Origin: Patescibacteria group bacterium
Lineage (GTDB): Bacteria > Patescibacteriota > Patescibacteriia > 2-12-FULL-60-25
Assembly (NCBI GenBank): GCA_049325475.1
Contig: JBMOLN010000007.1
Location: forward strand, 95,489-159,488
Direction of reading: 5' to 3'
DNA length: 64,000 nt
Part shown: in pieces, positions 7,086 through 46,265 of the stretch
Numbering within the stretch: the first letter of the stretch is position 1
Layout of the letters: every line of letters starts with the position of its first letter
The notes under the pieces: generated by a model
The model's input: only the letters and a program-made list of their open reading frames with translations
Databases searched by the model: none
Told to the model about the DNA's origin: nothing
Program-made: the position numbers and the translations under genes

Positions 7086-7415
7086 AGTCTTACTATCTTA
7101 ATGTATAAACCAAGATTGTAAAAGTTCACCTGCAGTCCCGCTCCCTCGTTAACAGTGACCAGTGACCGGTCGCTGGATGCAACGTACGTTGACCCGTAGT
7201 CCGGTTAACCAGTTATCCGGATTACTGTTAAACGGGATTACTGCAATACGTTTTGGATTCGTAGTTTGTAGTTTGAGGTTAGAAATATTAAAAAACCTCC
7301 CAAAATAGGAAGGCGAGAATTATTTGCAATACCTGCTGAATATCCGCGGACCCGAATCGCTCACTCGTTGATGGCACATGCGTAGGAAATAATCACATTA
7401 ATCAAAATGTTAGCT

Positions 7416-12153: not shown

Positions 12154-14041
12154 CCTGCTTGTCCGCAAGTGCGCGGAATGTTGGAGAAAGTTCATAAAGT
12201 TCGGCAAAGGAATACGCTACGGCTTCAATTTGCGGTTCGCCGTTTTGTAATTTATTGGCGGGCTTGAGTACAATAAACTTGTCGCAAATGCGCCGCACCG
12301 TGCTAAGACGATGCGCAATCACAAGCGCACCCTGATCTCCGGCAAGCGCCAGCTCCAAGCCCTGCTGCACTTCCCACTCCGTGAGTGAGTCCAAGTTGCT
12401 CGTTGCTTCATCAATTACCAGAAAATCTGGATTCTTGATCATGGCCGCGCCAATCATAACGCGCTGTTTCTCACCGCCCGAAAGCTGCAAGCCGTCTTTG
12501 CCAACCTTGGTTTCGAGCCCATGAGTGAGCCTGTCTTCAAAGTCAATCTTATACCGCCGCATCAACTCCCATATCTCATCATCGGTAATCCGCGCACGCT
12601 CTTCTTCCGAAAGGCTATAGAGCAGATTGTAGCGCAAAGTATTGTTAAAAATCTGCGGATGCTGGGCAATATAACCAACATGCTTAAGCCAGGAAGCCAG
12701 CTTTACATCACGCAAATCATAACCGTTCACACTAATCGATCCGTATTGCGGATCCATATGCCGTAGAAGCAAGCGCATCAGCGTGGTCTTGCCCGAACCG
12801 GAAACGCCCAGCAGTGCGACCTTTTCTCCGGGTTCGATGGTAAATCCTACATTGCGCAAAACCGGCCGTGGATCTTTTTTTACATCATCGGTCTCTTCAT
12901 CGTCATCTTCATCAGGTTCCTGACCCGGATATGTATGCGAGATTTGAGAGAACTCCACGCAAAATTCCTTTGCGCCGTTCAAATCTTTTGCATCCGATTT
13001 TTCCACTACATCGGGCTCGATCTTCAGAGCTTCGCTCAACGATTTTACGGACGGCATGTTGAAATTGAAATGTCTTTCAATTTCACTCACGCGCCACATA
13101 TTATCCGCCAACTTTTGCACCCAGGCAAACAGCGGAAACAACAAACCCATGTTCCAGTTGCCTTGCCAGACATTCCACACGCCATAACCCATAATCACGA
13201 TCGTGAATATATTCGTAATCAACGAACGGCTTGAAATCTGACCTATGTACCACAGCCAAAACCATCTGTCCCGCACCAGCAATGCTGATGAATCTTTCCT
13301 ATGCACCTTGATTTCGGGTTTTTGCTTGGCATTTACGGCCACTCGCTCATACTTGTCGATGCGTTCCGTGAAAAACTTGTTTATACGCCGGAATTCTTTA
13401 TCAATCGGCAAGCATGCTTCAATGGTCCGCCTGTTCAAAAACAGCGACCAAAGAAAATGCATTGCCAGCATTCCGGTAGCCAACAATCCGGCAACACCGC
13501 TTAGCATGAACAATAAAAACCACGCCAGTGCAAGATTAAGAAACACGGCATAGCCATCGAACAACAGGGTGGTTTCCATTTCACTGGCCTTCCAGCGGCC
13601 TTTGTCGATATTGGAAACACCCAATTCCGAAGCATGCTGAATATGCTGCCCGGCAGACTTTTGGAACATGCGCTTTAGAATGCTCTGATCCCAATTCACC
13701 ATGTGCTCACCTAACAAGTATTCGCGCGATCTGAAGTGTAGCCACATAAACAGTATGTTGACTGTGTAACAAAAAGCGAAAGCCGCAAACCCCTGCAATG
13801 CAAGAATTGCATTCCGATTCTGTATGCCGTCAAAGATATAACTAACCGCATACGGCGCCATGGTACTAAACAATATGGTAAATATTTCCAGCACCATAAA
13901 GCGCCTGAAATATTTTTTGGTCACGGGAGTCTGCTTTTCATCCCACACCCACTTAACCAATCGTGCGGTTTCCCGCATATCAAGCAAGTACTGCCAGATT
14001 GTTACCGGTGGTCTGCGTTTAACGTCCGCATCTTCGCTCAT
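12140..14041 (-). CDS. ABC exporter, fused permease/ATPase (MsbA-type)
   Basis: Six-TM N-terminal half, Walker A GVSGSGKTT, signature LSGGEKQRV, Walker B FLVIDEATSNLD. Acidic insert EPDEDDDEETDD lies just before the NBD. Confidence 0.9.
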   Translation of the reverse strand: MSEDADVKRRPPVTIWQYLLDMRETARLVKWVWDEKQTPVTKKYFRRFMVLEIFTILFSTMAPYAVSYIFDGIQNRNAILALQGFAAFAFCYTVNILFMWLHFRSREYLLGEHMVNWDQSILKRMFQKSAGQHIQHASELGVSNIDKGRWKASEMETTLLFDGYAVFLNLALAWFLLFMLSGVAGLLATGMLAMHFLWSLFLNRRTIEACLPIDKEFRRINKFFTERIDKYERVAVNAKQKPEIKVHRKDSSALLVRDRWFWLWYIGQISSRSLITNIFTIVIMGYGVWNVWQGNWNMGLLFPLFAWVQKLADNMWRVSEIERHFNFNMPSVKSLSEALKIEPDVVEKSDAKDLNGAKEFCVEFSQISHTYPGQEPDEDDDEETDDVKKDPRPVLRNVGFTIEPGEKVALLGVSGSGKTTLMRLLLRHMDPQYGSISVNGYDLRDVKLASWLKHVGYIAQHPQIFNNTLRYNLLYSLSEEERARITDDEIWELMRRYKIDFEDRLTHGLETKVGKDGLQLSGGEKQRVMIGAAMIKNPDFLVIDEATSNLDSLTEWEVQQGLELALAGDQGALVIAHRLSTVRRICDKFIVLKPANKLQNGEPQIEAVAYSFAELYELSPTFRALADKQELRI

Positions 14042-14218
14042 GGTCCGTCTCCTTTGCTTTTGTCAAAGTCCGTATTTTCAGCCTTGGCTGATAAAACCTA
14101 GGTTTAAGAATTTAGGTGAAGTTCGAGGCGCGATCGAGCATTTTTGCGAAACGTACCTGATGTACGTTGAGCAAAAAGCGGAAATCGTAACAAAGAAATT
14201 CGCCAAATTCTAAACCGT

Positions 14219-14247
14219 AAAAAAATATCTTGCGCAAGGCAAGATAT
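14219..14247 (-). terminator. intrinsic terminator (9-bp perfect stem)
   Basis: ATATCTTGC-loop-GCAAGATAT followed on the minus strand by T7. Confidence 0.7.
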
Positions 14248-14274
14248 TAATAATTTTTAAAATAATATTTGATA

Positions 14275-14391
14275 TTAAAAATCCTTAATATATTGCCTTA
14301 ACACCTCTTCAGTTCCGTTTTGGACAGCATCAAAACCGCGCCCGCCACGGACAGCATTTGGTGTTTTAACTTGTAGCAATATATATTTCAT
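14275..14391 (-). CDS. possible 38-aa small protein (or sRNA) in its own transcription unit
   Basis: ATG-initiated MKYILLQVKTPNAVRGGRGFDAVQNGTEEVLRQYIKDF. Lies between a consensus promoter (14404-14432) and a strong terminator (14219-14247). No clear SD. Confidence 0.3.
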   Translation of the reverse strand: MKYILLQVKTPNAVRGGRGFDAVQNGTEEVLRQYIKDF

Positions 14392-14403
14392 ATTGATGCC
14401 AAG

Positions 14404-14432
14404 ATATTAGCAGATACATATCTATCTGTCAA
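14404..14432 (-). promoter_or_regulatory. sigma70-like promoter TTGACA-17-TAATAT
   Basis: Minus-strand hexamers at 14432-14427 and 14409-14404. ATG of the 38-aa ORF lies 12 nt downstream. Confidence 0.5.
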
Positions 14433-14478
14433 GACTTAAATCTCAGCTTTAATCAAAATTTTTAGCTTATTTTAATAC

Positions 14479-14501
14479 AAAAAAACACCTACGCATAGGT
14501 G
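14479..14501 (-). terminator. intrinsic terminator
   Basis: CACCTA-tgcg-TAGGTG followed on the minus strand by T7. Downstream of the DUF457 gene. Confidence 0.65.
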
Positions 14502-14598
14502 CTAAATTCTCATCAACCATTAATCACCCGCCACAAACTAAGCCATCAACTAACAACTGATAATTCTTATTTCTTCATCATGCATTCTGCACTATACA

Positions 14599-22113: not shown

Positions 22114-22473
22114 TTAAGTTTCACTTAAATTCTTAATAAAACCGGCAATCATCTTTGAAATTTCAATTAATCTGTTTGATAGCCCATCAAAATCATCTGG
22201 AGAGATATAGTTCAACATAACCGCAAGATGCAGCATTGATCTTACTTCACCGCACGAGCCCTTGGCGATATTCAAATAATTTATAAATGCATTTGTTGTA
22301 CCCCCCTCATAGCCTTCCGCAATATTATTCATAACAGAAACCGCAGCACGTTGTATTTGATCTCTGAAAGAATAATCCTTGCAATCTTTAAATACTGCAT
22401 AAATTTCATAAGTTAAAGCCTTTGATTCCTGCCAGATCTTCATGTCCTCAAACTCAATGAACCTCATTACCAT
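22114..22473 (-). CDS. four-helix-bundle protein (23S rRNA IVS / Avd-like family)
   Basis: FRDQIQRAAVSVMNNIAEGYEG and KGSCGEV motifs characteristic of the TIGR02436-type family. Confidence 0.85.
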   Translation of the reverse strand: MVMRFIEFEDMKIWQESKALTYEIYAVFKDCKDYSFRDQIQRAAVSVMNNIAEGYEGGTTNAFINYLNIAKGSCGEVRSMLHLAVMLNYISPDDFDGLSNRLIEISKMIAGFIKNLSET

Positions 22474-29922: not shown

Positions 29923-30006
29923 GCTAGTCGCTAGATACTAGATGCTAGTAGCTAAATTCCAAATACCAAATACAAATATTGAATTGCTAATTGCTAATTG
30001 CTAATT
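29923..30006. repeat. phased heptanucleotide stutter array (12 units)
   Basis: GCTAGTC GCTAGAT ACTAGAT GCTAGTA GCTAAAT TCCAAAT ACCAAAT ACAAATA TTGAATT GCTAATT GCTAATT GCTAATT. Confidence 0.9.
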
Positions 30007-30021
30007 TATAATGTATATAGT

Positions 30022-31593
30022 ATGAAAAGTTTCGCACTTTGTTTAATGATCGCCGGCGGTCTTTTTATTTTTGCCAACAATGCTCAAGCTGCAGCCGATG
30101 CTTGCAACAATCCCTACATGTCGCTTAAGCAAGGTGACGAAATCCATTATCAAAGCGATGATACAAACCGCAGTTTTCAAATCCTTGTAGGTGATTCCGA
30201 AAAAGGAAAAACTACAATAAATTATCAATTCCCCAATTCATCACTAACCCAAAACATTTCTTGCCAGGATAAAACTGTTTTAGCCGGCAACTTTGTCGAC
30301 ACTTCCGCAAAAGACCTGGCTTTAACTGCTCAAGAAGTAACCGGTTCATTTCTCCCGGGTGATGTCCAACTCGGTTCCAGCTGGAGTACCAACTACAAAG
30401 CTTCTCAAAATATTGATAACAAAGAAGTCCTTTATACTATTCAAATTGATCACTGCGCCATAGCCGAATCCAGAATCAAGGTCCCGGCCGGCACTTATGA
30501 TACTTTAAAAATCCGCCTCACCGGCACAATCTCTTCAGATAATCCGGATGCGCCCACCCAAACCATCCGCCAAGATCTTTACTTTGCCAAAGGCATTGGC
30601 CTCATCAAAATCGTAGATAAAAGCAACAACCAAAACATCGAAACCGTAGCAACATATATCAACGTGGGTGACTGGAAGGAAACCGCCGCCAACATTGCCG
30701 CGCCAACCGCTGTTGGATTAGCCGCAGCCAACACAGCCATCGCCACACAAGGAATTCTCTCCGTAGACCTCGGCCGCTATCTTTGGTTTTTCATCACTGA
30801 ACCGCTTTTATTCTTCAGACGCCGCAAGCGCCGCGCTTGGGGCACGGTCTATAATGCTCTAACCCGCATTCCCGAAGATCTGGTTATTGTCCGTGTCAAA
30901 AATAAAAGCGGTAAATCGGTTTACACTCAAGTCACAGACAAAGAAGGTCGATATTCATTTTTAGTCCCCGAAGGCGAATACAAACTCGAAGCCAAAAAGA
31001 CCGGCTTCAGTTTTCCCACAAATCTGGCTAAAACTAAAAAACAAGATGCGCAATTCTTGGATATTTACCACGGAGAAACCATTAAAGTCGGTAAAAACGG
31101 AAAAGTCATTACCAGCAACATCCCTATTGATCCGGTTAAAAAAGATGATAAAGATAATGAAATTATTAAAAAAGATTATTGGCATACAACTCAAGAATGG
31201 ACTGCCTTAGCCGGCCCGGTCGTCGGCATTGTGGCTTTTATTCTCAATCCATCTTTAATGATTGGTATCGCACTCGTCATCGGACTGTTTATTTATCTTT
31301 TCTTCCGCCGCTTCGCCATGAGCCTCACCCCCAAACAATGGGGCACTGTCCGCGATGACATTGCCAAAATCCCCGGTTCCGTAGTCAGAGTTTTTATTAT
31401 GCCGTACAACAAACTCGCCGAATACGTTGTCACGGATTCCAAAGGCCGCTTTCATCTGCGTGTCGGCCAATGCGAGTATTACTTAACCGCTACCAAAGCC
31501 GGCTACAAACCCCTTAAGACTAAAAACTTCAACATCTCCAAAGCCAAAGAACCAAAAGTGATTACAGAAAGCTTGAAGCTGGAGAAGGTGTAA
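30022..31593 (+). CDS. membrane protein with two carboxypeptidase-regulatory-like domains
   Basis: Signal peptide MKSFALCLMIAGGLFIFANNAQA. Two VTD(K/S)(E/K)GR(Y/F)..(V/L)..GEY.L.A.K.G(F/Y) modules separated by TM helices. Confidence 0.7.
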   Translation: MKSFALCLMIAGGLFIFANNAQAAADACNNPYMSLKQGDEIHYQSDDTNRSFQILVGDSEKGKTTINYQFPNSSLTQNISCQDKTVLAGNFVDTSAKDLALTAQEVTGSFLPGDVQLGSSWSTNYKASQNIDNKEVLYTIQIDHCAIAESRIKVPAGTYDTLKIRLTGTISSDNPDAPTQTIRQDLYFAKGIGLIKIVDKSNNQNIETVATYINVGDWKETAANIAAPTAVGLAAANTAIATQGILSVDLGRYLWFFITEPLLFFRRRKRRAWGTVYNALTRIPEDLVIVRVKNKSGKSVYTQVTDKEGRYSFLVPEGEYKLEAKKTGFSFPTNLAKTKKQDAQFLDIYHGETIKVGKNGKVITSNIPIDPVKKDDKDNEIIKKDYWHTTQEWTALAGPVVGIVAFILNPSLMIGIALVIGLFIYLFFRRFAMSLTPKQWGTVRDDIAKIPGSVVRVFIMPYNKLAEYVVTDSKGRFHLRVGQCEYYLTATKAGYKPLKTKNFNISKAKEPKVITESLKLEKV

Positions 31594-31783: not shown

Positions 31784-32593
31784 CTACCCTTCATGAGAAA
31801 AAACCGCATTGGCGGAATCAACAACCTTATCCACGTCTTCGTGGATTTTATAGCGCGAGAGAACGCTTAACGCGCCAAAGAAAAGCGCACCGGTAAACAT
31901 AATAAACACCGGCAATGTATCCTTGAACCAGCCCGACTCATAAGGCATACAAACCACCAGACCCAATGCCTGCAACAAAGCTTTGATCTTGCCTGCCGCC
32001 GAGGCTTTTGATGGCCGCATCATGGCCATGATGGATTTACGCGTACGCGTCACTTTTCGTGCCGCCCGTTTATCCAGCCAAGGTTTGATCTTGGGTTCCA
32101 CTCTGCGCTTAAACCAAAGCACTACTGCTTTGCGCATGAGCGTACCGAATACATCTATCAAAATAATCCCAAAAGCCAGCCAAGGACTGATAATTCCGCG
32201 CGCCGCGAAAATAGCAATGAGAGGCAAAAGCGTCAGCTTATCAATCAACGGATCCAGCCACTCACCTATACGCATGTCTTTTGCGGTTCTGGTAATGGCG
32301 TGCATCACATATGCCTTTGCCATTTTACCGTCAGTTCTGTCCAGTGCTGTGGCAAAAACCACAATAACGAATCCCCAAAAATAACTTACATAAAAATGCA
32401 CGGCCACACCCGCCCAAAACACAGGCAAGCGAATCGCCGAGAGGACATTGGGCGAAAGCGGTGTATTGCGCCCGGCCCAGGCTAATGCACGGTAAGGAAT
32501 CGCCAACACCAGCACTGTGACGATCAAGCCGCTTGCTAAACAAATAAATGCTTTCAGCTCCCAAGGGAGAGATGATTGAAGGATTTCGTCCAT
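31784..32593 (-). CDS. CDP-alcohol phosphatidyltransferase-family protein (atypical motif spacing)
   Basis: DRTDGKMAK...GEWLDPLIDK fits D-x2-DG-x2-A(R/K)...G-x3-D-x3-D, but with about 16 rather than 8 residues before the Gly. Confidence 0.65.
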   Translation of the reverse strand: MDEILQSSLPWELKAFICLASGLIVTVLVLAIPYRALAWAGRNTPLSPNVLSAIRLPVFWAGVAVHFYVSYFWGFVIVVFATALDRTDGKMAKAYVMHAITRTAKDMRIGEWLDPLIDKLTLLPLIAIFAARGIISPWLAFGIILIDVFGTLMRKAVVLWFKRRVEPKIKPWLDKRAARKVTRTRKSIMAMMRPSKASAAGKIKALLQALGLVVCMPYESGWFKDTLPVFIMFTGALFFGALSVLSRYKIHEDVDKVVDSANAVFSHEG

Positions 32594-32725: not shown

Positions 32726-33523
32726 TTGGCCTACGGCCGGGTAGAAAGGAAGGGTACATACATGCGTATGTACAGCAATTTCGGAGAAAGCCAGTTGATC
32801 ATTGACCCAGTCGAACAAGATTTGCGGCAACATCTTCAGCCGCACGTGGTAGAGAGAATTCTTTACCACCTGGACACGGAGACTGGATCCTTGGAAAACG
32901 ATTTCGAGGTCCAAACAATTTTCGTTGCCAGCGTGCAATGGACGCCGTTCTCCTTGCACGTCATCTATCGCACCAAACGGCGCGATCCCAAAACCGGCGA
33001 AATCAAAGATGGTATGCAATTCATGCTCATGCGTCCTTTCCACGAAATGATGCGTGCCCTGCTCGTAACCGCAGACGGCTACGTCGTCATGCAGCGCGAG
33101 TACCGCCGTACCCTCGGCCAATGGATTGATATGCACTGCGCCGGCGGAACAAAAAAGAATGAAAAGCTGGATACGCTGATTTCGGAAATGATTTCCGAAA
33201 CCGGCTGCCGGCCTTCCAAGCAGTCAACCATCTGGCTGTTACGCCGCTCGGTAACGGACGACGGTTCGCTCTCCGATCCGTTAAACTACCTAGCACTCGA
33301 CATGGTGCGTCCGCCAAATGACGGTATTCACGACAACGTCGAAGACAACATCAAGGGAGTGATGTTCATTCCCTTCGAGGAATGGCGCGAAAAAGCTCTG
33401 GACGGTGAATATGACGATCCGTTTAGTGAAAACTTCGCGGCGCGTTGCAGTTTGGATCCACAAACCAAGCGTCTCATTGTTCGCGGTAAACGCGCCGAAA
33501 TCCTCCGCAGCCCCAAAGGATAA
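32726..33523 (+). CDS. hypothetical protein, degenerate Nudix-like box
   Basis: 265-aa ORF preferred over the shorter antisense 32705-33136. GGTKKNEKLDTLISEMISETG loosely resembles a Nudix box. Confidence 0.45.
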   Translation: MAYGRVERKGTYMRMYSNFGESQLIIDPVEQDLRQHLQPHVVERILYHLDTETGSLENDFEVQTIFVASVQWTPFSLHVIYRTKRRDPKTGEIKDGMQFMLMRPFHEMMRALLVTADGYVVMQREYRRTLGQWIDMHCAGGTKKNEKLDTLISEMISETGCRPSKQSTIWLLRRSVTDDGSLSDPLNYLALDMVRPPNDGIHDNVEDNIKGVMFIPFEEWREKALDGEYDDPFSENFAARCSLDPQTKRLIVRGKRAEILRSPKG

Positions 33524-33580
33524 TTTCTTGCCCTGCATCCATGGGGCTTTTTAATTAAAAAACCGCAGAGTCATCTGCGA

Positions 33581-34213
33581 TTATAAAAGATTCAAATGTG
33601 CTAACTTTGCGGACAGATCGTCATCTCTATTTGCATCCTCCAAATTATAGTGATGAGCAACCAGCCCGTATTCACCTGCAGCCTGTACATAACGAGCCAC
33701 ATCATCAACAAAAAAACATTCATCCGGTTTGCATCCCGCCAAACTCACAGCCTCTTTGTACATCCGCCGATTCGGTTTGCGTACTCCAAACATAAAACTT
33801 GCAGCCGCGCCAGCAAAACTCAAACCTGACAGCTTGATGATCCATTCCAGACGGATTGGATCCGTATCCGAAAGCGCATACAAACGCAATTTGTGATTTC
33901 GTTCCAAGGCCCGGCTCCAAAGACGAATCACCGGCTCATTTCTGGTAAAAATATCAGCCCAAATCTCTGCAAAATTTGTCTTCGGCAAATCCGAGCCAAA
34001 TCGCTTTCCCATAAAAATCCTGAATTCATCAAACTTCATGGCACCCGTCTCGAGCTCATAAAGAGCTTTTTTAGCTTGTTCATCAAGATTTAACAACCGA
34101 TCGATTTCGTCTGCATGCATAGATACCAATTCCCGGCTCAAACGATCCGCCGCTCGATAACGGTTGAATGGAGTCAAAACATTTCCCAAATCAGTTAAAA
34201 TTACTTGAATCAT
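33581..34213 (-). CDS. HAD-superfamily phosphatase
   Basis: ILTDLGNVL (DxG variant of motif I) and FVDDVARYVQAAGEYG motifs. Confidence 0.75.
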   Translation of the reverse strand: MIQVILTDLGNVLTPFNRYRAADRLSRELVSMHADEIDRLLNLDEQAKKALYELETGAMKFDEFRIFMGKRFGSDLPKTNFAEIWADIFTRNEPVIRLWSRALERNHKLRLYALSDTDPIRLEWIIKLSGLSFAGAAASFMFGVRKPNRRMYKEAVSLAGCKPDECFFVDDVARYVQAAGEYGLVAHHYNLEDANRDDDLSAKLAHLNLL

Positions 34214-34313
34214 GTAAGCCTCCTTTCAAAGGACCTAAAAAAATATTACAAAATTTCTCCTCTTTGTCAATGCTATTGTTGGACAATAAAAAAATCCCTC
34301 GTTTCCGAGAGAA

Positions 34314-34730
34314 TTAGTCGAACAACAACCCAGGAACCAAACCATAAACCTCTTCCCAACTTTCCGCCCAATGCATGTCCGGCAGGTTCAAAACCAATGC
34401 CCGCATGTACTCGCGCGAAGCAACGCCCGGCTCAACATGTACGATGGTTTGTTTAGCCTCAATAAACGCAAAAGCGGCTAAAAATCCCAACTCGATACGC
34501 GCAGTAGGACCTGCCGTATCAGCATCATGATGCCAAATCACCAATGCGGCTTTATCCATCATCTCAATATCTTGGGCCAACAGCAGCTCCATCTGTTCCG
34601 CGGTCTTCGCCTGTTCCCAACGCGGATCCGTATTATCCAAAACTTCACATACCTCAAGATGTTTCTTGGCTTCCTCACGCCACTTGGTCGCCATTGTGCC
34701 TAAAAGCGCTACCGACTTTTTCTGATTCAT
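34314..34730 (-). CDS. nucleoside 2-deoxyribosyltransferase-like protein
   Basis: Rossmann-like VALLGT start and DKAALVIWHHDADTAGPTARIELGFLAAF, resembling the D.GT..E.G.A signature of the NDT/CMP-hydrolase family (by eye). Confidence 0.45.
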   Translation of the reverse strand: MNQKKSVALLGTMATKWREEAKKHLEVCEVLDNTDPRWEQAKTAEQMELLLAQDIEMMDKAALVIWHHDADTAGPTARIELGFLAAFAFIEAKQTIVHVEPGVASREYMRALVLNLPDMHWAESWEEVYGLVPGLLFD

Positions 34731-34739
34731 TGCACTGAC

Positions 34740-35120
34740 TCACTCATCAATTGACTTAAAACAACCCATTAGCAAAATAGTCCCTTTGCCATGCCCGTAA
34801 TCACAACCTATTTTTACATCACTAACGATGTGTTGGCATTGTTTGCAGATCAACACTCCCCGAACAAGCGCTCCCTCTCCGGCCCTTCCGTTGCATGGCG
34901 GTAAAAGCTCATGCTTGATTCCGCCCGGATGGTCATAGCAGAAGTAATGGTAGTTGCCATGTTCGGCAAATGCGCCGTGCCTGCGAATCCCGCAACGCTT
35001 GCAGCGGTAAAAATGTTTATGCGATTTTGTGCCGTTTCCTTTAACCGGACACTCGCGCTCGTCCTCGCTCCAATCATGCGTGCCGTTCGTATCATCAAAC
35101 AACGGACGGAAGGTTTTCAT
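34740..35120 (-). CDS. Cys/His-rich hypothetical protein (possible HNH-like beta-beta-alpha-metal finger)
   Basis: CKRCG...YDHPGG...LICKQCQH has the CxxC...DH...CxxCxH spacing of HNH-type fingers. Weak, by eye. Confidence 0.5.
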   Translation of the reverse strand: MKTFRPLFDDTNGTHDWSEDERECPVKGNGTKSHKHFYRCKRCGIRRHGAFAEHGNYHYFCYDHPGGIKHELLPPCNGRAGEGALVRGVLICKQCQHIVSDVKIGCDYGHGKGTILLMGCFKSIDE

Positions 35121-35132
35121 GGTTTACGCTCC

Positions 35133-35507
35133 TTACAGTTCCAAGTTGCTATGATCGCGCCGTCCCCAATACCACACCACATTTCCATTAATGGCATCAT
35201 GAGTAATGTAAATATTACTCTTCTGAACCGCATCGCGATGCATAATAAAAAGAATCAACTTCTTGACCTGTTCTGTAGTCAAATTCGCCCGGTAAAACAA
35301 AACCAGCTGATTACCTCTTCGCTCATGAGCTAATAATTTTTGAGAGACATTAAGATCTTGGGCTTCCGGCCAGCGCAAAAACCAAACCGTAAACTCATTC
35401 GGTCCTGTAGAAGAAATGTAAAATTCATATTGTTTAATGAATAATTCGTAGCACGCAAATTGGACAACCTGCTGCAAGGTCAAACCTTCTTTGCAGTACA
35501 ATTGCAT
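35133..35507 (-). CDS. hypothetical protein
   Basis: 124-136 aa ORF, 12 nt upstream of the Cys/His-rich gene. No recognisable motif. Confidence 0.5.
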   Translation of the reverse strand: MQLYCKEGLTLQQVVQFACYELFIKQYEFYISSTGPNEFTVWFLRWPEAQDLNVSQKLLAHERRGNQLVLFYRANLTTEQVKKLILFIMHRDAVQKSNIYITHDAINGNVVWYWGRRDHSNLEL

Positions 35508-35650
35508 TGCTTTTCTCCTTTTAGACAATCCTGAAGTTTTCAAAGATCATAGAACAGCCTGCACAAAGATTTGCATAAATAATTGCTTTGGTCAAGGATA
35601 AAAAAGAAGAGCTCCCGGAGCTCCTTGATTCAAGCTGATCAATTTCCAAA

Positions 35651-36193
35651 CTATCTTTTTTCATTCTTCTGCTCCATGAGCTTTACATAACCGGTTTCTA
35701 TTATCTGATCTTTCGGGCATCCGAGTTTAACCAGCAATTCTTCCAATTTTTCTAGATATTTAGCTTTATTCTTCTCCTCACTCTCAGGCACTTCTACAGC
35801 CACCTCAACAAAATCGCCCAGCTCGCGAATCTGATCAAAATTAATTTCTATTCCCTGAAACATAAAAGCGTCTCTAACCTTATCAATTTCCACCACATAC
35901 ACATATCCGCTGTTTGTCAGAATATCCTCCAATAAATCCGGATCACTTAAAGGCAAGTCAATATCATGCCACGAAACATCTTTACCCTTTGACTTGGTCT
36001 TAAAAGATAGAATTGCCTTGTCTTTTTTACGGCGAATCCGCAAAACCAAAACTCTGTCAATATCAGCTGCGTGCTTTAAATACGTATCAATCTGGCGTTC
36101 GCCCATGGAAACCGTTTCTACATCCGGCAAAGAATTGACGCCTTCCAAAAAAGCATCTTTATCTGTAACTCTGGCACGAATTTCTATTTCCAT
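35651..36193 (-). CDS. CYTH-domain protein (class IV adenylate cyclase / triphosphate tunnel metalloenzyme family)
   Basis: Starts MEIEIRARV (ExExK/R signature). 180-aa size and acidic strand pattern typical of CyaB/CYTH. Confidence 0.8.
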   Translation of the reverse strand: MEIEIRARVTDKDAFLEGVNSLPDVETVSMGERQIDTYLKHAADIDRVLVLRIRRKKDKAILSFKTKSKGKDVSWHDIDLPLSDPDLLEDILTNSGYVYVVEIDKVRDAFMFQGIEINFDQIRELGDFVEVAVEVPESEEKNKAKYLEKLEELLVKLGCPKDQIIETGYVKLMEQKNEKR

Positions 36194-36197
36194 ATTA

Positions 36198-37220
36198 TTA
36201 ATCCCTGATTAATGATTGAATTTCTTGTAAAGCATCCGAATGCAAAAACTCTTCTACATCCATGGTTGTCTGCTCATTCTCTTCCTGCAGACAAAGCCGC
36301 ACCTGATATTTTCTGTCCGGACGCCTCTCCAAGCGGATACCGTAAAACTGTTCCTCACAAGTACCATCCGTTGCGCGCGGGCACTGACTGCACATGCTGG
36401 CAAGTTTAAGATCGCGAATTTGTTTAAAACCGATTTCATATCCGTTAGGCAATCTGTAAATCGTTGAGCACGAGGAGGATCCGGGATTAGCCTTGCGCAA
36501 AACCTCAACAGCTCCCATATCTTTTAAAATTTTACGTATTGCTAAAATCGATTCCATGCCGTTTCCCAAATCATTTAACAACCTTAGCGGAATTTGATGT
36601 TCTCTGGCCCATTCGATTATCTTGGAAACACGCCCCGCATCTTCGGCCGTGCTGACGACCGTATTGATTTTTACTGCAGCGCCTATTTCTTTGGCGCGCA
36701 AAACACTTTTCAATTCCTGCTCAACTTGAGCATGAGCCCAGCTTAAAGTTGGCAAGCGCCTTTTACCGCCTTTACGGCTCACACCCCTGCCTTCTTGAGT
36801 TGATAAAAATTCTTGCGGATCAACCGAGTGAACTGAAAAATTAAAACTGCGCAAGCCTGCTGCAAACAACCTTTCCAATTCTTCTTCACTGAACTGACCG
36901 TTGGATGTTGTTTTTACCTCCAAACCCATAGCCGCTAAACCGGCTGCAATGGTTGCTAATTCCGGATTCTTTGTCGGTTCGCCGCCCGTAAAATGAACTT
37001 CTTTAATTTCGGGTAATGCTTTTTGAAAAGCCGCAATAATTTCTTGTATTTCCGGCCCCCAATCCAAATCGATAATATCTCTGCTCCCCTCACTATGACA
37101 AAAAGAACAACGCCAAGGGCACTTATCCGTCACCTTGATCCTTAAAGCTTGTTCGCGCTTTATCACGAAAGGATTTTCTCCGGAGGTAGCTTCCATTCGC
37201 ATAATATAAGACCCCACCAT
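36198..37220 (-). CDS. radical SAM protein, MoaA-like
   Basis: LRIKVTDKCPWRCSFCHSEG (CxxxCxxC), FTGGEPT, TTSNG, VKINTVV and a C-terminal CSQCPRATDGTC cluster parallel the MoaA layout. Confidence 0.85.
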   Translation of the reverse strand: MVGSYIMRMEATSGENPFVIKREQALRIKVTDKCPWRCSFCHSEGSRDIIDLDWGPEIQEIIAAFQKALPEIKEVHFTGGEPTKNPELATIAAGLAAMGLEVKTTSNGQFSEEELERLFAAGLRSFNFSVHSVDPQEFLSTQEGRGVSRKGGKRRLPTLSWAHAQVEQELKSVLRAKEIGAAVKINTVVSTAEDAGRVSKIIEWAREHQIPLRLLNDLGNGMESILAIRKILKDMGAVEVLRKANPGSSSCSTIYRLPNGYEIGFKQIRDLKLASMCSQCPRATDGTCEEQFYGIRLERRPDRKYQVRLCLQEENEQTTMDVEEFLHSDALQEIQSLIRD

Positions 37221-37237
37221 TATACAAAAAAAATCAC

Positions 37238-37663
37238 CTAAGTACCAGGTGATAAAAACAGAATCTTCATTTCTTGCCTATGTCTTGGCAACACTTGAAG
37301 GCTTTCAACTGCTTCTTCAAGAGGCATCCAGACAACCTCCGTAATTTCATCCGTATCGGTAGGCGAACTTTGTGGCTTTGAAGTATGCCCGATATAGTTA
37401 TGATAAATATAGTGCAAATCAGGAGTAATATTCTCGCTGATAGAAGCAAATCGTACATTGGTTAACGCGGTTCCGGTTTCCTCCAAAAATTCACGCATTG
37501 CGCATTTTTCCAAACTTTCCCCGAATTCAAGATGCCCTCCGGGGATTGTTAAACAGTGGGACATTTTTTTGCTTCTTACCAGGCAAATGCGTCCCTCATT
37601 ATCCAGACAAAAAATACCAACCGCGTTTTCAATCTTCCCTTGCATGATTTCACTCCTAGGCAT
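37238..37663 (-). CDS. NUDIX hydrolase
   Basis: Canonical Nudix box [23 protein letters not shown]. Confidence 0.85.
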
Positions 37664-37835
37664 TTAGATTTGCATAGATATAACCGTATGTCAAGGCTTT
37701 AATCAAGATCTTGCCAAACACGAAATTATACTGTATAACTATCCTCACATTCAAACAACGAATCATTGATAAATATCGCTAAAGCGAATCCAAAATTGGT
37801 GATTGTTGTTTGATGATTGATTATTACAGTTTTAT

Positions 37836-37910
37836 GGTGGCCATGGTGAAGCGGTATCACAGCAGATTGTGGCTCTGCTATCACGGGTTCAACTCCCGTT
37901 GGCCACCCCA
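37836..37910 (+). tRNA. tRNA-His (GTG), with encoded G-1 and CCA
   Basis: Hand-folded cloverleaf. Acceptor GTGGCCA/TGGCCAC, D stem GTGA/TCAC, anticodon stem GCAGA/TCTGC with loop TTGTGGC, T arm ACGGG-TTCAACT-CCCGT. The extra 5' G pairs with discriminator C. 3' CCA is encoded. Confidence 0.9.
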
Positions 37911-37911
37911 T

Positions 37912-38091
37912 GAAAACGCCAGTCCAATTTTCGGGCTGGCGTTTTCATATGTGTAGTTAACAGAGGGAGTTGAACCAGGGGATGGTAAGGGGAGAGGCTC
38001 CCCTTACATATTGAGGGTGACAGCCCTGAGTTTACGAAGGGCGATAAGAGGGGCGGAAGCCCCTATTAAGAGGAGTGTAACGACGACGTGA
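37912..38091. mobile_element. 180-bp insert bracketed by 21-bp direct repeats of the tRNA-His 3' end (possible integration scar or miniature element)
   Basis: AACTCCCGTTGGCCACCCCAT occurs at 37891-37911 (within the tRNA) and again at 38092-38112. The insert carries GGGAG/CTCCC hairpins and no ORF. Confidence 0.35.
37913..37945 (+). terminator. terminator-like hairpin after tRNA-His
   Basis: AAAACGCCAG-13 nt-CTGGCGTTTT. Confidence 0.55.
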
Positions 38092-38117
38092 AACTCCCGT
38101 TGGCCACCCCATAAGAA

Positions 38118-38141
38118 GTCGACCTTATCTGTCGACTTTTT
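38118..38141 (+). terminator. intrinsic terminator after second copy of tRNA 3' end
   Basis: GTCGAC-cttatct-GTCGAC followed by TTTTT. Confidence 0.65.
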
Positions 38142-38215
38142 GTTATTCTTCCGAATCAAATACCTAAAAAACAGCGTCTTGCGTCTTGTCGAAGAAAATC
38201 CTGAACCTATTTTTG

Positions 38216-39394
38216 TTACACCATCCCCAAACCCAGCGCCACAAACATGCCAACTCCCAAAAAAAAGATTATTAAGCCGGCTATTAAATGCAAAGTCTTT
38301 AATCTTTTTTGTCTCCATTCCTCTGCCTTCTCCACCGATGTAAATCCCCAATAAATCAAGAAAGTAATGATCAGCATCGGTAAAATGAAAATAAAATTAT
38401 AAAGCAGCAAATACAGGAAGGCGGTATTTCTGGTCGCCGTTTTTGACAGCAATCCCAAAATCACAATATAAGGCCCTGATGTACACGGAAGTAAAAATAA
38501 ACTCACCACAAAGCCGATCATGAACGCGCCCGGTACAGAAGTTACTCCGCGGATCACGGCTTTAAGTTTAGGACGCCAGCTCATGGGCACTTCCATCACA
38601 AACCATTTTCCATACCATAAAAAATCTTTTAGATTGAACAATCCTATAATAATCGCGAGCACGGCCACGGCAATATAAATATAATGTGTTGCACCCGAGA
38701 TTTGTATTGCCGAATATAAACCGACGCCCATCAACAAATAGGAAATATAAATTGACGCAGAAAATGCCAAACCGGCCAAGAGCGCCCGCCTTCTGGAAGA
38801 CCCTGCTAAAACCGTGGTCAATAAAATAATCAAAACCGCAAAAGCGCAAGGATTAATTGCATCAACCGCAGCTGCCGCTAAAATTGCCGGAATGGTTATT
38901 GTTTGCACAAACTCAATCTTTTCCGGACTTTGTAAAGGATCACTCTCCCCTACGATATGTAAAATCTCATTTTCTTGTTCTGTTGATTTTACTAATTTAT
39001 CCGCCGGCGAACCGCAATCCGCTTCACTGCAACGTATAATTTCTTGCTCCAACGACTGGCCAATGGCACTGCTAAAACCCACAATCACTTTATCATCAAT
39101 AAAAACGGTCGGTACCCCTTCAATCTGACGGCCATAAGCGTTCGCCAATTCTTGAAACAAAGCCTGCCCGTATCTGTCTGAATAAATTTCATAATCTTGC
39201 ACTTTCAAATTCGGATATTGACTCTCCAATCTTTCCAAGAAAGATTCCATGGCCGCGCAATGAGGGCATCCTTGCCCGTAAAAAAAATATAATTCAACAT
39301 CCTTCTGCTCTTGCGCATAAACATCGGCAACGCTTAATACAATAAAAAATAAAAATGATACTATTATGGATTTTAATGCCACTTTGTATTTCAT
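38216..39394 (-). CDS. thioredoxin-fold / CcdA(DsbD)-type thiol-disulfide transporter fusion
   Basis: Signal sequence, GQGCPHCAAME (CxxC) thioredoxin-like domain, then a polytopic domain with INPCAFAVL and LPCTSGPY motifs of the DsbD_2/CcdA family. Confidence 0.8.
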   Translation of the reverse strand: MKYKVALKSIIVSFLFFIVLSVADVYAQEQKDVELYFFYGQGCPHCAAMESFLERLESQYPNLKVQDYEIYSDRYGQALFQELANAYGRQIEGVPTVFIDDKVIVGFSSAIGQSLEQEIIRCSEADCGSPADKLVKSTEQENEILHIVGESDPLQSPEKIEFVQTITIPAILAAAAVDAINPCAFAVLIILLTTVLAGSSRRRALLAGLAFSASIYISYLLMGVGLYSAIQISGATHYIYIAVAVLAIIIGLFNLKDFLWYGKWFVMEVPMSWRPKLKAVIRGVTSVPGAFMIGFVVSLFLLPCTSGPYIVILGLLSKTATRNTAFLYLLLYNFIFILPMLIITFLIYWGFTSVEKAEEWRQKRLKTLHLIAGLIIFFLGVGMFVALGLGMV

Positions 39395-39432: not shown

Positions 39433-39711
39433 TTAATCTTTTATAATCTTAATCGCTTTCCCCTCAACCAATCCTTGCGCGATTTTTTTATACGCTGACG
39501 ATAAAATCCGTTGAAAAGTACTTTGCGAAGTCTGCATCTTTTTTGCGGCTTCATTCTGATCCAGCTCTTCAATATTTTTTAAACGCATAGCTTCCATCTC
39601 TTCATGAGACAATTCCACAAACTCAAGATCCCTCATGGGGATGCCTTGTGGTTTAAAAAACGTCACATGAGGATCAAATTGTATTCTCCTGCCCAGTCTT
39701 GGTCTTGGCAT
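39433..39711 (-). CDS. DUF134 (UPF0251) DNA-binding protein
   Basis: MPRPRLGRRIQFDPHVTFFKPQGIP start and a sigma-70-region-4-like HTH (AAKKMQTSQSTFQRIL). Confidence 0.8.
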   Translation of the reverse strand: MPRPRLGRRIQFDPHVTFFKPQGIPMRDLEFVELSHEEMEAMRLKNIEELDQNEAAKKMQTSQSTFQRILSSAYKKIAQGLVEGKAIKIIKD

Positions 39712-39786
39712 ATACAAACATTTTAACGCAAAAATGGAACAAAGTCTCTAAACAAAATCAGAAACCCTTGTTCACTTTTGCAAAAG

Positions 39787-43354: not shown

Positions 43355-43819
43355 TTAAGCCGCTACAGCAACCCGCACCGGTTCTGTAGTTGCCGGCGCC
43401 TCATTTTTTTCTGATTTTTTCTTGGGATTTTCAATTGTATAAATGAGAGCCGACAGCATTTTGTAAATCACGGTATTTGTTTCCTTCAGCCGGTTAACCG
43501 TTTCTTTATGTTCCGGAAACAAATCACTTATAAGCATCAACGAAGTTTCGCAAACCGCGGTATTGTTGCGCGCATAATTCAAATGCTTTACAAACTCATC
43601 TTTAACTCTCTTCTGCTGTCCCTGCGCAATTTGCGCCGACATGGAGAGAGCCGCGCGGTTTAATTGCGCTGCAAGTGCATACCTCTCCTCTTGCGGCAAA
43701 GCATGAACCAACTCATGCACGCCCTTGGCAAATTCAAATGCCTGTTGCCAAACCACCAAATCTCGAAACGATGTTTGCTTATATTCTTTTTTTTGTGAAG
43801 TATTGTTTGAAGTAGTCAT
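43355..43819 (-). CDS. four-helix-bundle protein (23S rRNA IVS / Avd-like family)
   Basis: FRDLVVWQQAFEFAKGVHELV...AAQLNRAALSMSAQIAQG. Start is probably MTTSNN rather than the upstream M. Confidence 0.75.
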   Translation of the reverse strand: MTTSNNTSQKKEYKQTSFRDLVVWQQAFEFAKGVHELVHALPQEERYALAAQLNRAALSMSAQIAQGQQKRVKDEFVKHLNYARNNTAVCETSLMLISDLFPEHKETVNRLKETNTVIYKMLSALIYTIENPKKKSEKNEAPATTEPVRVAVAA

Positions 43820-43909
43820 ATACGTAGTAATAAATGTATTGCGCGTTTGAAAGCTGACCATGACGTTAGCACGTCTTCCCGTTCATCTGTACTCCGGAAA
43901 ACTTTAAGG

Positions 43910-44263
43910 TTAAGGCGGTCGTAAATGAAAAATTAACTTCGATAACATTCTAATAATATAATTGCTTCTTTCATAAATAACTTTATGGGTTGCTTCATTA
44001 ATGTATTTAAAGCGCAGAGCCAAACACAACAAAGACCGAACTTCACTGCAAGATCCTTTTGCAATAAATAAAAACCTGACGAATTCTTTATTCGAATCTC
44101 TTTCAAAGCCTTCCGTGATATTGCTGGATACAGATACGCTGGCTCGACGAATTTGATCATTAAAGGACCAATCTCGACACAATCTAAATGCCTCAAAAAC
44201 ATCAACAGCTAATTCCATTGATTGTTGCCAAGCTTTAATATCTTCAACTTGTTTAAAATTCAT
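43910..44263 (-). CDS. four-helix-bundle protein (23S rRNA IVS / Avd-like family)
   Basis: FNDQIRRASVSVSSNITEGFER and KGSCSEV motifs. Confidence 0.8.
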   Translation of the reverse strand: MNFKQVEDIKAWQQSMELAVDVFEAFRLCRDWSFNDQIRRASVSVSSNITEGFERDSNKEFVRFLFIAKGSCSEVRSLLCLALRFKYINEATHKVIYERSNYIIRMLSKLIFHLRPP

Positions 44264-45887: not shown

Positions 45888-46265
45888 TTAGCTTTTAGCC
45901 GATAGCTTATAGCCATCGTTATAAATGCTATTTAAAAAACCATTCAACATCTTTAATAACTCAACCACTTCACTTAAAATATCACCCATCTCATTCTTTT
46001 TTATATATTCCAAATCTACTGCCAAATAAATCATAGACTGAACCTCAACACATGATGCTTTCGCTATACGTAAAAAATAAACAAGTTCACGATCATTTCT
46101 TCTTGCGTAACCCTCGGCTATGTTATTCATAACAGAAAGTGACGCTCGTCTTATTTGATCTCTAAAACCAAAATCTCTACTATCTGAAAATAACTTATAG
46201 ATACGTACTGTTAATTTTCTCGCTTTTTGCCACACTAACAAGTCTTTAAACGAAATGATCTTCAT
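45888..46265 (-). CDS. four-helix-bundle protein (23S rRNA IVS / Avd-like family)
   Basis: FRDQIRRASLSVMNNIAEGYAR and KASCVEV motifs. The last ~10 residues are encoded by a TAGC-word stutter. Confidence 0.85.
   Translation of the reverse strand: MKIISFKDLLVWQKARKLTVRIYKLFSDSRDFGFRDQIRRASLSVMNNIAEGYARRNDRELVYFLRIAKASCVEVQSMIYLAVDLEYIKKNEMGDILSEVVELLKMLNGFLNSIYNDGYKLSAKS

Follow-up and report, generated by a model that had tools for sequence, protein, structure and literature searches.

MoaA, the classical GTP 3',8-cyclase of molybdenum cofactor (Moco) synthesis, acts on GTP, and the viperins, including the prokaryotic ones (pVips), convert CTP, UTP, or GTP to 3'-deoxy-3',4'-didehydro-nucleoside triphosphates (NTPs), which are chain terminators. 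Viperins are linked to kinases of the CMPK2/Tmk superfamily; to our knowledge, viperin-type radical S-adenosylmethionine (SAM) enzymes are the only known makers of natural antiviral chain-terminator nucleotides, and their products are leads for drug design. Radical SAM enzymes also serve peptidyl-nucleoside pathways: in polyoxin and nikkomycin biosynthesis, the phosphatase PolJ acts after the radical SAM enzyme PolH/NikJ, and BlsE functions in the blasticidin S pathway. Here, we analyze a minus-strand cassette that encodes a Nudix hydrolase, a MoaA-like radical SAM protein (rSAM), and a CYTH protein, or triphosphate tunnel metalloenzyme (TTM). It lies in a stretch of 64,000 nucleotides (nt) from a Patescibacteria group bacterium (GenBank assembly GCA_049325475.1, contig JBMOLN010000007.1, positions 95,489 to 159,488 of the forward strand), hereafter called the window. 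The conserved core of the system is the rSAM-CYTH gene pair, and the Nudix-rSAM-CYTH cassette (35651-37663) is its only unit in the window. A previous sequence-only reading of the same DNA had joined these three genes to four others downstream (33581-37663) as one candidate nucleotide-modification or signaling system.

As that reading proposed, rSAM resembles MoaA without being a classical member of that family. Its best NCBIfam match, to the moaA model TIGR02666, falls short of the threshold (95.6 bits; cutoff, 284.05), and its scores are likewise below the cutoffs of the archaeal MoaA model TIGR02668 (86.3 bits; cutoff, 325), the prokaryotic viperin model NF038283 (50.7 bits; cutoff, 180), and the BlsE/MilG-type model TIGR04466 (26 bits; cutoff, 400). 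No NCBIfam model (June 2026) is matched at its cutoff, Pfam and the PHROGs return only generic radical SAM families, and PADLOC (2023) returns only partial pVip matches of about 46 to 60 bits, including matches of 55.6 and 45.7 bits that are confined to residues 28 to 208. A profile built from the rSAM family scores 92 bits against Staphylococcus aureus MoaA (E value, 3e-25) and about 33 bits against viperins. The AlphaFold2 (AF2) model of rSAM (predicted local distance difference test score [pLDDT] of 89, predicted template modeling score of 0.86) has S. aureus MoaA as its best fold match in the PDB (E value, 1e-14; template modeling [TM] score, 0.58), followed by SuiB, BlsE, SkfB, HydE, and viperins, with the match to BlsE restricted to the radical SAM core. 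The NCBI annotation places the rSAM start 6 codons downstream of the one that we list, giving a protein of 334 amino acids (aa).

Across 196 family sequences, we counted as conserved those residues kept in at least 90%, with replacements in at most a few sequences and alignment gaps accounting for the remainder. These residues comprise R27, C34, C38, C41, H42, E44, G45, T78-G-G-E-P82, T105, S129, and N186 in the N-terminal half and K266, C277, C280, C288, E290, Y293, R296, and C310 in the C-terminal part, so that the family signature consists of CX3CX2C-H-x-E-G together with four C-terminal cysteines in a "C-x-E-x-[FY]-Y-G-x-R" motif. The C-terminal cysteines are spaced C277-x2-C280-x7-C288...C310; the CxxC pair aligns to that of MoaA, and the residue aligned to the third MoaA ligand differs between the HMMER and MAFFT alignments. 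Mapping MoaA residues through the HMMER alignment (S. aureus numbering; the weight given to R17, R266, and R268 comes from the title of PDB entry 2FB2) places R17 at the invariant R27 and R192, which we take to be a triphosphate contact, at R213, an arginine in 167 of the 196 sequences. R266 falls at a mostly hydrophobic position (F, L, or I in most members) and R268 at a non-basic one; the roles of the remaining MoaA residues are presumed from the MoaA-GTP structure. We infer that rSAM would grip the phosphate chain and keep the second cluster, yet recognize a base or other moiety different from the guanine bound by MoaA.

That rSAM is a GTP 3',8-cyclase for Moco synthesis is, in our judgment, extremely unlikely. 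MoaA is both its best-scoring curated family and its best structural match, but rSAM shares just 30% identity with a true MoaA (P0044), lacks the Mob_synth_C domain (PF06463) that P0044 contains, and belongs to a family without a C-terminal Gly-Gly tail. Its conserved partner is CYTH rather than MoaC, and its relatives include fusions to Gre-like, CYTH, and tetratricopeptide repeat (TPR) domains. The sequence-only reading had also dismissed Moco synthesis for want of other pathway genes, and this holds beyond the window: no Moco gene lies next to the cluster or beside rSAM in the loci examined, and no Moco family occurs among the proteins scanned.

A word-indexed search for rSAM relatives gave only 44 protein clusters. 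In a pattern scan with each GTDB species represented by a single genome, up to 434 genomes encode a relative, and HMMER recovers 186 clusters (at 50% identity) with E values of 1e-30 or lower among 1.84 billion representative proteins. Linkage was counted over 83 distinct loci, in all of which open reading frames (ORFs) were called and searched with a hidden Markov model (HMM) iterated from the CYTH partners. A CYTH gene lies within 300 bp of rSAM on the same strand in 71 of these loci and within 2 kb in 75. The CYTH-linked loci belong to Patescibacteria, Actinomycetota, Bacillota, Gammaproteobacteria, and unclassified metagenome-assembled genomes (MAGs); the rSAM loci of Chloroflexi and Deltaproteobacteria have no CYTH gene. 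Pfam identifies the actinobacterial partner as CYTH (E value, 5e-9), and in one IMG/VR contig (L095 in our numbering of loci) rSAM and CYTH are fused in a single ORF of 551 aa. Within the window, rSAM and CYTH are separated by only 4 nt, as first read from the sequence.

The best 79 genome loci are spread over Uhrbacteria, Falkowbacteria, Daviesbacteria, Peribacteria, and Saccharibacteria on the Patescibacteria side, many Actinomycetota (Streptomyces, Nocardia, Saccharothrix, Actinomadura, and others), Paenibacillus, Thermoactinomyces, a deltaproteobacterium, Chloroflexi, and gammaproteobacterial MAGs. The neighbor-joining (NJ) tree of the family is at odds with taxonomy, placing Deltaproteobacteria with Falkowbacteria, Paenibacillus with a metagenomic sequence resembling those of the candidate phyla radiation, and Thermoactinomyces inside Actinomycetota. 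This mixing of phyla, together with the sparse distribution, indicates that the rSAM-CYTH core is a horizontally transferred accessory module.

The pair appears undescribed in the curated libraries and open literature that we searched, in agreement with the sequence-only reading; full-text searches of the open literature returned no paper on a radical SAM or MoaA protein paired with CYTH, a TTM, or a class IV cyclase. In kind, we would place it with nucleotide-modifying radical SAM conflict systems. Among the phage genomes of INPHARED, the window proteins find only distant MoaA-like genes (about 24% identity), and against PHROG and PADLOC they find generic Nudix, rSAM, and HAD matches and one unnamed PHROG for a nucleoside deoxyribosyltransferase (NDT)-like protein encoded downstream of the cassette. 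Locus L003 holds a second such arrangement at 13200-14581, 4 kb from the family's own rSAM-CYTH pair: an unrelated radical SAM gene (PA0069/Rv2578c-like, 278 aa) with a CYTH gene (TIGR00318; E value, 1.9e-9) after it, the two overlapping. This suggests that the pairing of CYTH with radical SAM proteins is a broader theme.

The assignment of the second core gene to CYTH is secure at the level of profiles: the protein matches PF01928 (E value, 1.1e-14; 55.1 bits against 23.2) and passes the class IV adenylate cyclase model TIGR00318 (70.9 bits against 57.95), with which its NCBI name agrees. The solved structures closest to it are those of the Sulfolobus triphosphatase SaTTM (E value, 3e-9), two Pyrococcus CYTH proteins, and the Yersinia cyclase YpAC-IV (E value, 2e-3). 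The tunnel residues E2, E4, R52, R54, K65, R107, D120, and E130 are kept across 78 partner CYTH proteins, a sequence pattern compatible with either a hydrolase or a cyclase.

The Nudix gene is a partner only within the window's own small subclade and stands outside the conserved core. Its product is a canonical Nudix hydrolase, as originally read (PF00293; E value, 7.7e-22; 78.2 bits against a threshold of 21.1), with an intact Nudix box (GX5EX7REX2EEXG) and no match to a specific NCBIfam subfamily model at its cutoff. Adjacency was established by single-sequence phmmer, since an iterated Nudix HMM drifted onto rSAM in round 3. By this measure, only the window and loci L009/L015, L013, and L001/L002/L014 have an orthologue directly 5' of rSAM in the same orientation. 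They make up four of the six members of one NJ subclade; in the remaining two members (L003 and L010), rSAM is instead accompanied by Gre-like and Tmk-like partners.

The earlier observation that rSAM sits among enzymes acting on nucleotide phosphates stands. At about even confidence, we read the module as a viperin-like, NTP-modifying system with a role in conflict, producing an antiviral or antimicrobial nucleotide analogue, and not as a part of Moco synthesis. The CX3CX2C-bound cluster of rSAM would cleave SAM, the MoaA-type C-terminal cysteine cluster would hold an NTP-type substrate, and the resulting radical chemistry would take place on the sugar or the base, as it does when MoaA acts on GTP and viperin on CTP. 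The putatively translationally coupled CYTH protein would then act on the product triphosphate, either by hydrolysis or by a cyclization that releases pyrophosphate. In the lineage of the window, the Nudix hydrolase may trim or clear the nucleotide, for processing or self-protection; other lineages encode an HD-domain protein, a kinase of the Tmk-like type, or a Gre paralog in place of the Nudix enzyme. Substrate class, order of steps, product, and biological role are all proposals, and the viperin-like reading draws on the close parallel between the partners of rSAM and those of viperins, namely, the linkage to Tmk-superfamily kinases.

That parallel comes from loci in which rSAM has partners other than, or in addition to, CYTH. 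Tmk-like nucleoside monophosphate (NMP) kinase genes lie within 2 kb of rSAM in 11 of the 83 loci (TIGR00041, 56 to 88 bits; cutoff, 83), and genes for Gre-factor paralogs of about 160 aa do so in 17. Four representative Gre paralogs score only 24 to 41 bits against a GreA cutoff of 139, two aligning to nearly the full GreA model and two to its C-terminal half only, and in one locus (L045) a bona fide GreA (169 bits) is encoded alongside the paralog. Proteins P0103, P0113, and P0159 are rSAM-Gre-like fusions, P0050 carries a SorC-type sugar-phosphate-binding domain N-terminal to rSAM, one representative fusion protein has C-terminal TPRs, and an HD-domain protein is encoded after rSAM in locus L043.

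These Gre paralogs also figure in a signaling reading, in which rSAM and a cyclase-type CYTH would make a modified, possibly cyclic-phosphate messenger (formally like MoaA plus MoaC) that the Gre paralog would read at the secondary channel of RNA polymerase, as DksA does with ppGpp, and that Nudix or HD enzymes would remove. Such a scheme accommodates the TIGR00318 score of CYTH, the Gre paralogs that are operonic with or fused to rSAM, the coexistence of one of them with a genuine GreA in L045, the make-and-break logic that hydrolase partners such as Nudix and HD would suit, and the regulators with helix-turn-helix (HTH) and TPR domains that adjoin the actinobacterial and L095 modules. We nevertheless consider it unlikely, given that the window encodes neither a Gre-like protein nor any other candidate receptor, that a locus often has either CYTH or a Gre-like partner and not both, that the nearest solved CYTH is a triphosphatase and not a cyclase, and that the module shows no linkage to a known effector domain. 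A related and rather improbable proposal is that the rSAM family makes a nucleotide aimed at RNA polymerase, which the Gre paralog would deliver, sense, or excise at the secondary channel, while CYTH, Nudix, HD, and Tmk-like partners would set the phosphorylation state of the product. Were it true, the family would define a previously unseen type of nucleotide system, immune or regulatory, that targets transcription in bacteria and phages, and would add a third functional branch to those of MoaA and viperin. Through the fusions, a connection of RNA polymerase with a radical SAM enzyme becomes concrete and testable; we know of no precedent for one.

The genomic contexts of homologous loci (Table 1) bear on the conflict role. 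In a deltaproteobacterium (L018), the rSAM operon is embedded between a type III-E CRISPR effector gene and Eleos genes, and two other sets of loci (L008 and L005-L007) are accompanied by Abi, restriction-modification, or toxin-type genes. A further operon (L093) lies on a bona fide phage contig, which encodes a virion structural protein and, 0.8 kb downstream of the operon, a portal protein (E value, 2e-67). Other contexts point elsewhere. In a Bacillus cereus megaplasmid (L092), the pair is flanked by genes for ATP-grasp ligases and a major facilitator superfamily (MFS) transporter, and in Paenibacillus (L017) it follows genes for an ABC exporter and a family 2 glycosyltransferase (GT2). The 405-aa protein of the B. 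cereus locus has a faintly AlaRS-like N terminus, and a cyclodipeptide synthase-P450 pair precedes this putative biosynthetic cluster by about 4 kb, with MarR regulators and an MFS transporter between them.

The exporter-linked clusters raise the prospect that the module makes a secreted nucleoside-type natural product or a nucleotide-derived cofactor, with rSAM building the scaffold and CYTH removing the triphosphate, and the sugar-phosphate-binding domain fused to rSAM in P0050 fits this as well. We regard such a biosynthetic role as doubtful: the window and most other loci have no tailoring enzymes or exporter beside the pair, Gre fusions and defense-island or phage contexts are ill suited to a secreted metabolite or cofactor, and Patescibacteria have very small genomes and little secondary metabolism. 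The precedents initially invoked for the locus, a nucleotide-signal defense module and nucleoside antibiotics, thus find echoes in homologous loci (L018, L092, and L017), but not through the NDT-like gene on which the comparison with blasticidin-type pathways was based. That argument falls for the window because the NDT-like gene sits in a chromosomal backbone without rSAM (see below), and rSAM itself scores far below the BlsE/MilG cutoff.

Several observations weigh against the viperin-like conflict reading. Some MoaA triphosphate-binding positions are changed in rSAM (K69 to E74 and R71 to H76), and the substrate could be something other than a plain NTP. In the window clade, CYTH has R in place of K at position 6, giving ExExR where most partners have ExExK, and E-V-A-V-E where they have E-I-E. 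Five loci (L008, L018, L019, L020, and L093) have a Gre-like partner, accompanied in all but L020 by a Tmk-like one, and no CYTH gene; CYTH is therefore not obligatory for rSAM. The defense-island contexts are anecdotal, coming from three lineages among some 20 non-actinobacterial loci; actinobacterial loci have only XRE/HTH-TPR regulators nearby; and the neighbors in the window are housekeeping and homologue-less genes, not defense genes. The phage and exporter-linked clusters, finally, imply that the module serves more than one role.

We now turn to the extent of the system within the window. The seven minus-strand ORFs proposed as one cluster are present at 33581-37663, and the minus strand carries the majority of large ORFs across the window, so their collinearity is weak evidence of a common function. 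Their uniform strand is thus borne out, whereas the tight spacing claimed for the whole run is not: Nudix, rSAM, and CYTH are separated by 17 and 4 nt, and the genes for the 124-aa, Cys/His-rich, and NDT-like proteins by 12 and 9 nt, but gaps of 107 and 100 nt follow CYTH and the NDT-like gene, respectively. Because these two gaps hold terminator-like hairpins, the arrangement suggests three transcription units, namely, Nudix-rSAM-CYTH, 124-aa-Cys/His-NDT-like, and HAD. The promoter-like match 5' of the Nudix gene (Table 1) is a consensus match only, such matches being no more frequent in the region than in shuffled sequence; another (TTGACA-16-TAATAT) lies 5' of the HAD gene. Apart from a tRNA, no riboswitch or other RNA element was detected in 33000-38300 at E values of 1 or lower.

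A 31-nt direct repeat on the minus strand, CCTTGAC...AT(T/C)TATGCAAATCT (35567-35597 and 37666-37696; 74% identity), sits immediately 5' of the first gene in both the Nudix and the 124-aa units, and its 12-mer core, allowing up to 1 mismatch, occurs at only these two sites within the 64 kb. A shared promoter or operator would explain it, as would chance. As an element joining the two units, a candidate AT[T/C]TATGCAAAT motif was set aside as a weak hint, its matches being not enriched in the window and absent 5' of the Nudix gene in L009. The 31-nt motif is the sole hint tying the 124-aa and Cys/His genes to the cassette, of which they are at best putative members.

The closest relative of the window locus (L009/L015; 75% rSAM identity) carries Nudix-rSAM-CYTH alone. 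There, the cassette is followed by genes for trigger factor and a LysM/M23 peptidase, which in the window lie on its other side, so the cassette is inverted or rearranged between the two. Among the ORFs of 91 rSAM loci, phmmer detects no homologue of the 124-aa, Cys/His-rich, NDT-like, HAD, or convergent proteins; the rSAM-CYTH pair recurs across genomes as a conserved neighborhood and the four downstream genes do not.

Individually, these genes fared unevenly. The HAD phosphatase assignment holds on two profiles (Table 1). The Cys/His-rich protein, thought to resemble HNH fingers, finds only itself among 5.8 billion proteins and has no Pfam, NCBIfam, PADLOC, or PHROG match better than an E value of 0.04, none of the weak matches being to HNH; the 124/136-aa protein obtains no annotation from the library scans, and neither of the two has a homologue in L009 or in the contigs L112-L114 described below. 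The convergent gene, read as a degenerate Nudix, matches nothing in Pfam, NCBIfam, PADLOC, or PHROG and retains only a loose resemblance to the Nudix motif. The NDT-like protein is below threshold in Pfam (PF05014/PF15891; 24.4 bits against 30), though its AF2 model (11 homologues; pLDDT, 90.8) matches the putative nucleoside deoxyribosyltransferase 4MCJ (TM score, 0.72; E value, 5e-6) and also resembles the structures of DNPH1, NDTs, and YtoQ. With this fold and an invariant E80 in "TARIELG" as the candidate catalytic glutamate, it can be assigned to the NDT superfamily as originally suggested, its enzymatic role being a prediction.

The NDT-like gene is a resident of the syntenic backbone and unrelated to the cassette. 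Its orthologues (51 to 60% identity) occur in three other Patescibacteria contigs (L112-L114), in a backbone composed of a DsbD-like/DUF134/DUF5320 block, the NDT-like gene, and genes for the BipA GTPase and a CDP-alcohol phosphatidyltransferase, with a 527-aa CarboxypepD_reg-like protein encoded farther on; neither the rSAM-CYTH pair nor Nudix adjoins it there. Relative to this backbone, the window has an insertion of tRNA-His, the cassette, and the two homologue-less genes that separates the DsbD block from the NDT-like gene, and the HAD and convergent genes take the place of BipA. The four downstream genes and the convergent gene therefore lie outside the module by synteny and by their absence from rSAM loci, and the seven-gene operon is rejected on both grounds. 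That all seven genes plus the convergent one form a single nucleotide-modification pathway is very unlikely; the shared strand, the short gaps, the nucleotide-acting nature of all recognizable products, and the 31-nt motif upstream of two units speak for it, and they are countered by the observations above, including the hairpins past CYTH and the NDT-like gene, the lack of the motif 5' of Nudix in L009, and the general strand bias of the window.

The tRNA-His gene lies at 37837-37910, and its 3' end (AACTCCCGTTGGCCACCCCA...) recurs 201 nt downstream at 38092-38117 with 24 of 26 nt identical, which looks like an att-type remnant of integration or excision. A genomic island at tRNA-His bounding the cassette was considered and rejected: no more than about 175 nt lie within the repeat, and the tRNA stands between them and the cassette. 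Elsewhere in the window, paralogous small genes (22114-22473, 43355-43861, 43910-44263, and 45888-46265) match L009 proteins with the Pfam domain 23S_rRNA_IVP (a four-helix bundle), a family scattered in the window and expanded in the lineage, and a very large minus-strand ORF (2031 aa) occupies 57771-63866.

Table 1. Features of the window and contexts of homologous rSAM loci. Coordinates refer to the window or, for other loci, to the locus named.
Location	Feature	Coordinates	Strand	Basis or remark
Window	Sigma-70-like promoter match TTGAAT-18-TATAAT, 5' of Nudix gene	37725..37754	minus	Putative cassette transcription start
Window	Nudix hydrolase, first cassette gene, lineage-specific partner	37238-37663	minus	PF00293
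Window	MoaA-like rSAM, core gene 1	36198-37220	minus	PF04055; probably two [4Fe-4S] clusters (predicted)
Window	CYTH/triphosphate tunnel metalloenzyme, core gene 2	35651-36193	minus	PF01928; 4 nt past rSAM stop
Window	Terminator-like hairpin and T-run, directly past CYTH stop	35607..35625	minus	Predicted transcript end of cassette
Window	124/136-aa protein	35133-35543	minus	No homologues detected
Window	Cys/His-rich protein, 126 aa	34740-35120	minus	No homologues detected
Window	NDT-like protein, backbone gene	34314-34730	minus	Predicted fold; orthologues in L112-L114
Window	Terminator-like hairpin and T-run, directly past NDT-like stop	34295-34312	minus	Sequence
Window	HAD-IA hydrolase	33581-34213	minus	PF00702, TIGR01509
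Window	Terminator-like hairpin and T-run, directly past HAD stop	33561-33582	minus	Sequence
Window	Backbone gene	29998-31593		732 bits to L114 counterpart
Window	Backbone gene	31784-32593		Counterpart in related backbone
Window	Backbone gene	38216-39394		639 bits to counterpart
Window	Backbone gene	39433-39717		Counterpart in related backbone
L018 (deltaproteobacterium)	gRAMP type III-E CRISPR effector, 1599 aa	1977-12591 (whole defense island)		PADLOC, 1773 bits; rSAM operon starts 200 nt later
L018	Overlapping operon rSAM > Gre-like > Tmk-like, then at once Eleos LeoBC/LeoA			245 and 329 bits; dynamin-like pair
L008	AbiU (AIPR), type IIG restriction-modification enzyme, AAA ATPase			Nearby
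L005-L007	Type IIG-like methyltransferase, HEPN protein, HigB			Nearby
L093 (IMG/VR UViG_3300017593_001448)	Overlapping Tmk-like > rSAM > Gre-like	6450-8354		62.7-kb phage contig
L092 (B. cereus megaplasmid NZ_CP063160.1)	ATP-grasp - rSAM - CYTH - 405-aa protein - ATP-grasp - MFS	149179-155743		Second ATP-grasp BacD/DdaF-like
L017 (Paenibacillus)	ABC exporter and GT2 > CYTH > rSAM
Actinobacterial loci and L095	Divergent XRE-HTH and TPR regulators

Taken together, the rSAM family constitutes a separate MoaA-derived branch with its own invariant signature and a triphosphate-tunnel partner that is nearly obligate. That its members are found in CRISPR, Eleos, and Abi islands, in clusters with exporter genes, and in a phage suggests nucleotide chemistry that is still unexplored and of potential antiviral or antibiotic use. 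For Patescibacteria, with their largely unannotated genomes, the family also provides a way into the function of one accessory system.

The closest described enzyme is MoaA (S. aureus structures 1TV7 and 2FB3), with which rSAM shares the radical SAM TIM-barrel core, the CX3CX2C motif, the C-terminal cysteine region (CxxC...C), and the equivalents of R17 and R192. It differs in reaching about one third of the family cutoff, in its four invariant C-terminal cysteines and the "C-H-x-E-G" directly after the SAM-cluster motif, in having Glu and His for K69 and R71, in lacking R266, R268, and the Gly-Gly tail, and in being paired with CYTH, away from Moco genes, rather than with MoaC. The CYTH protein, for its part, has the single domain of about 180 aa, the N-terminal ExEx[K/R], and the tunnel Arg, Lys, and Glu residues of SaTTM and CyaB/YpAC-IV, and is set apart as a dedicated radical SAM partner, fused to rSAM in L095, and by the ExExR and E-V-A-V-E variants of the window subclade. 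With peptidyl-nucleoside pathways, the module shares a radical SAM enzyme acting on a presumed nucleotide ahead of a phosphohydrolase, and its Bacillus and Paenibacillus relatives lie beside amino acid ligases or exporters, but genes for ligases, an exporter, or sugar tailoring are absent from the window. Relative to viperins and pVips, rSAM matches the pVip models only over the N-terminal core, has no counterpart of the C-terminal extension of viperins, carries a second cysteine cluster that viperins presumably lack, and has near-obligate CYTH and Gre-paralog partners that are not described for pVips. What it shares with them is a MoaA-related radical SAM enzyme that would use an NTP as substrate, a sparse distribution suggestive of horizontal transfer, cases of residence in defense islands, and, in some relatives, linkage to an NMP kinase of the Tmk/CMPK superfamily.

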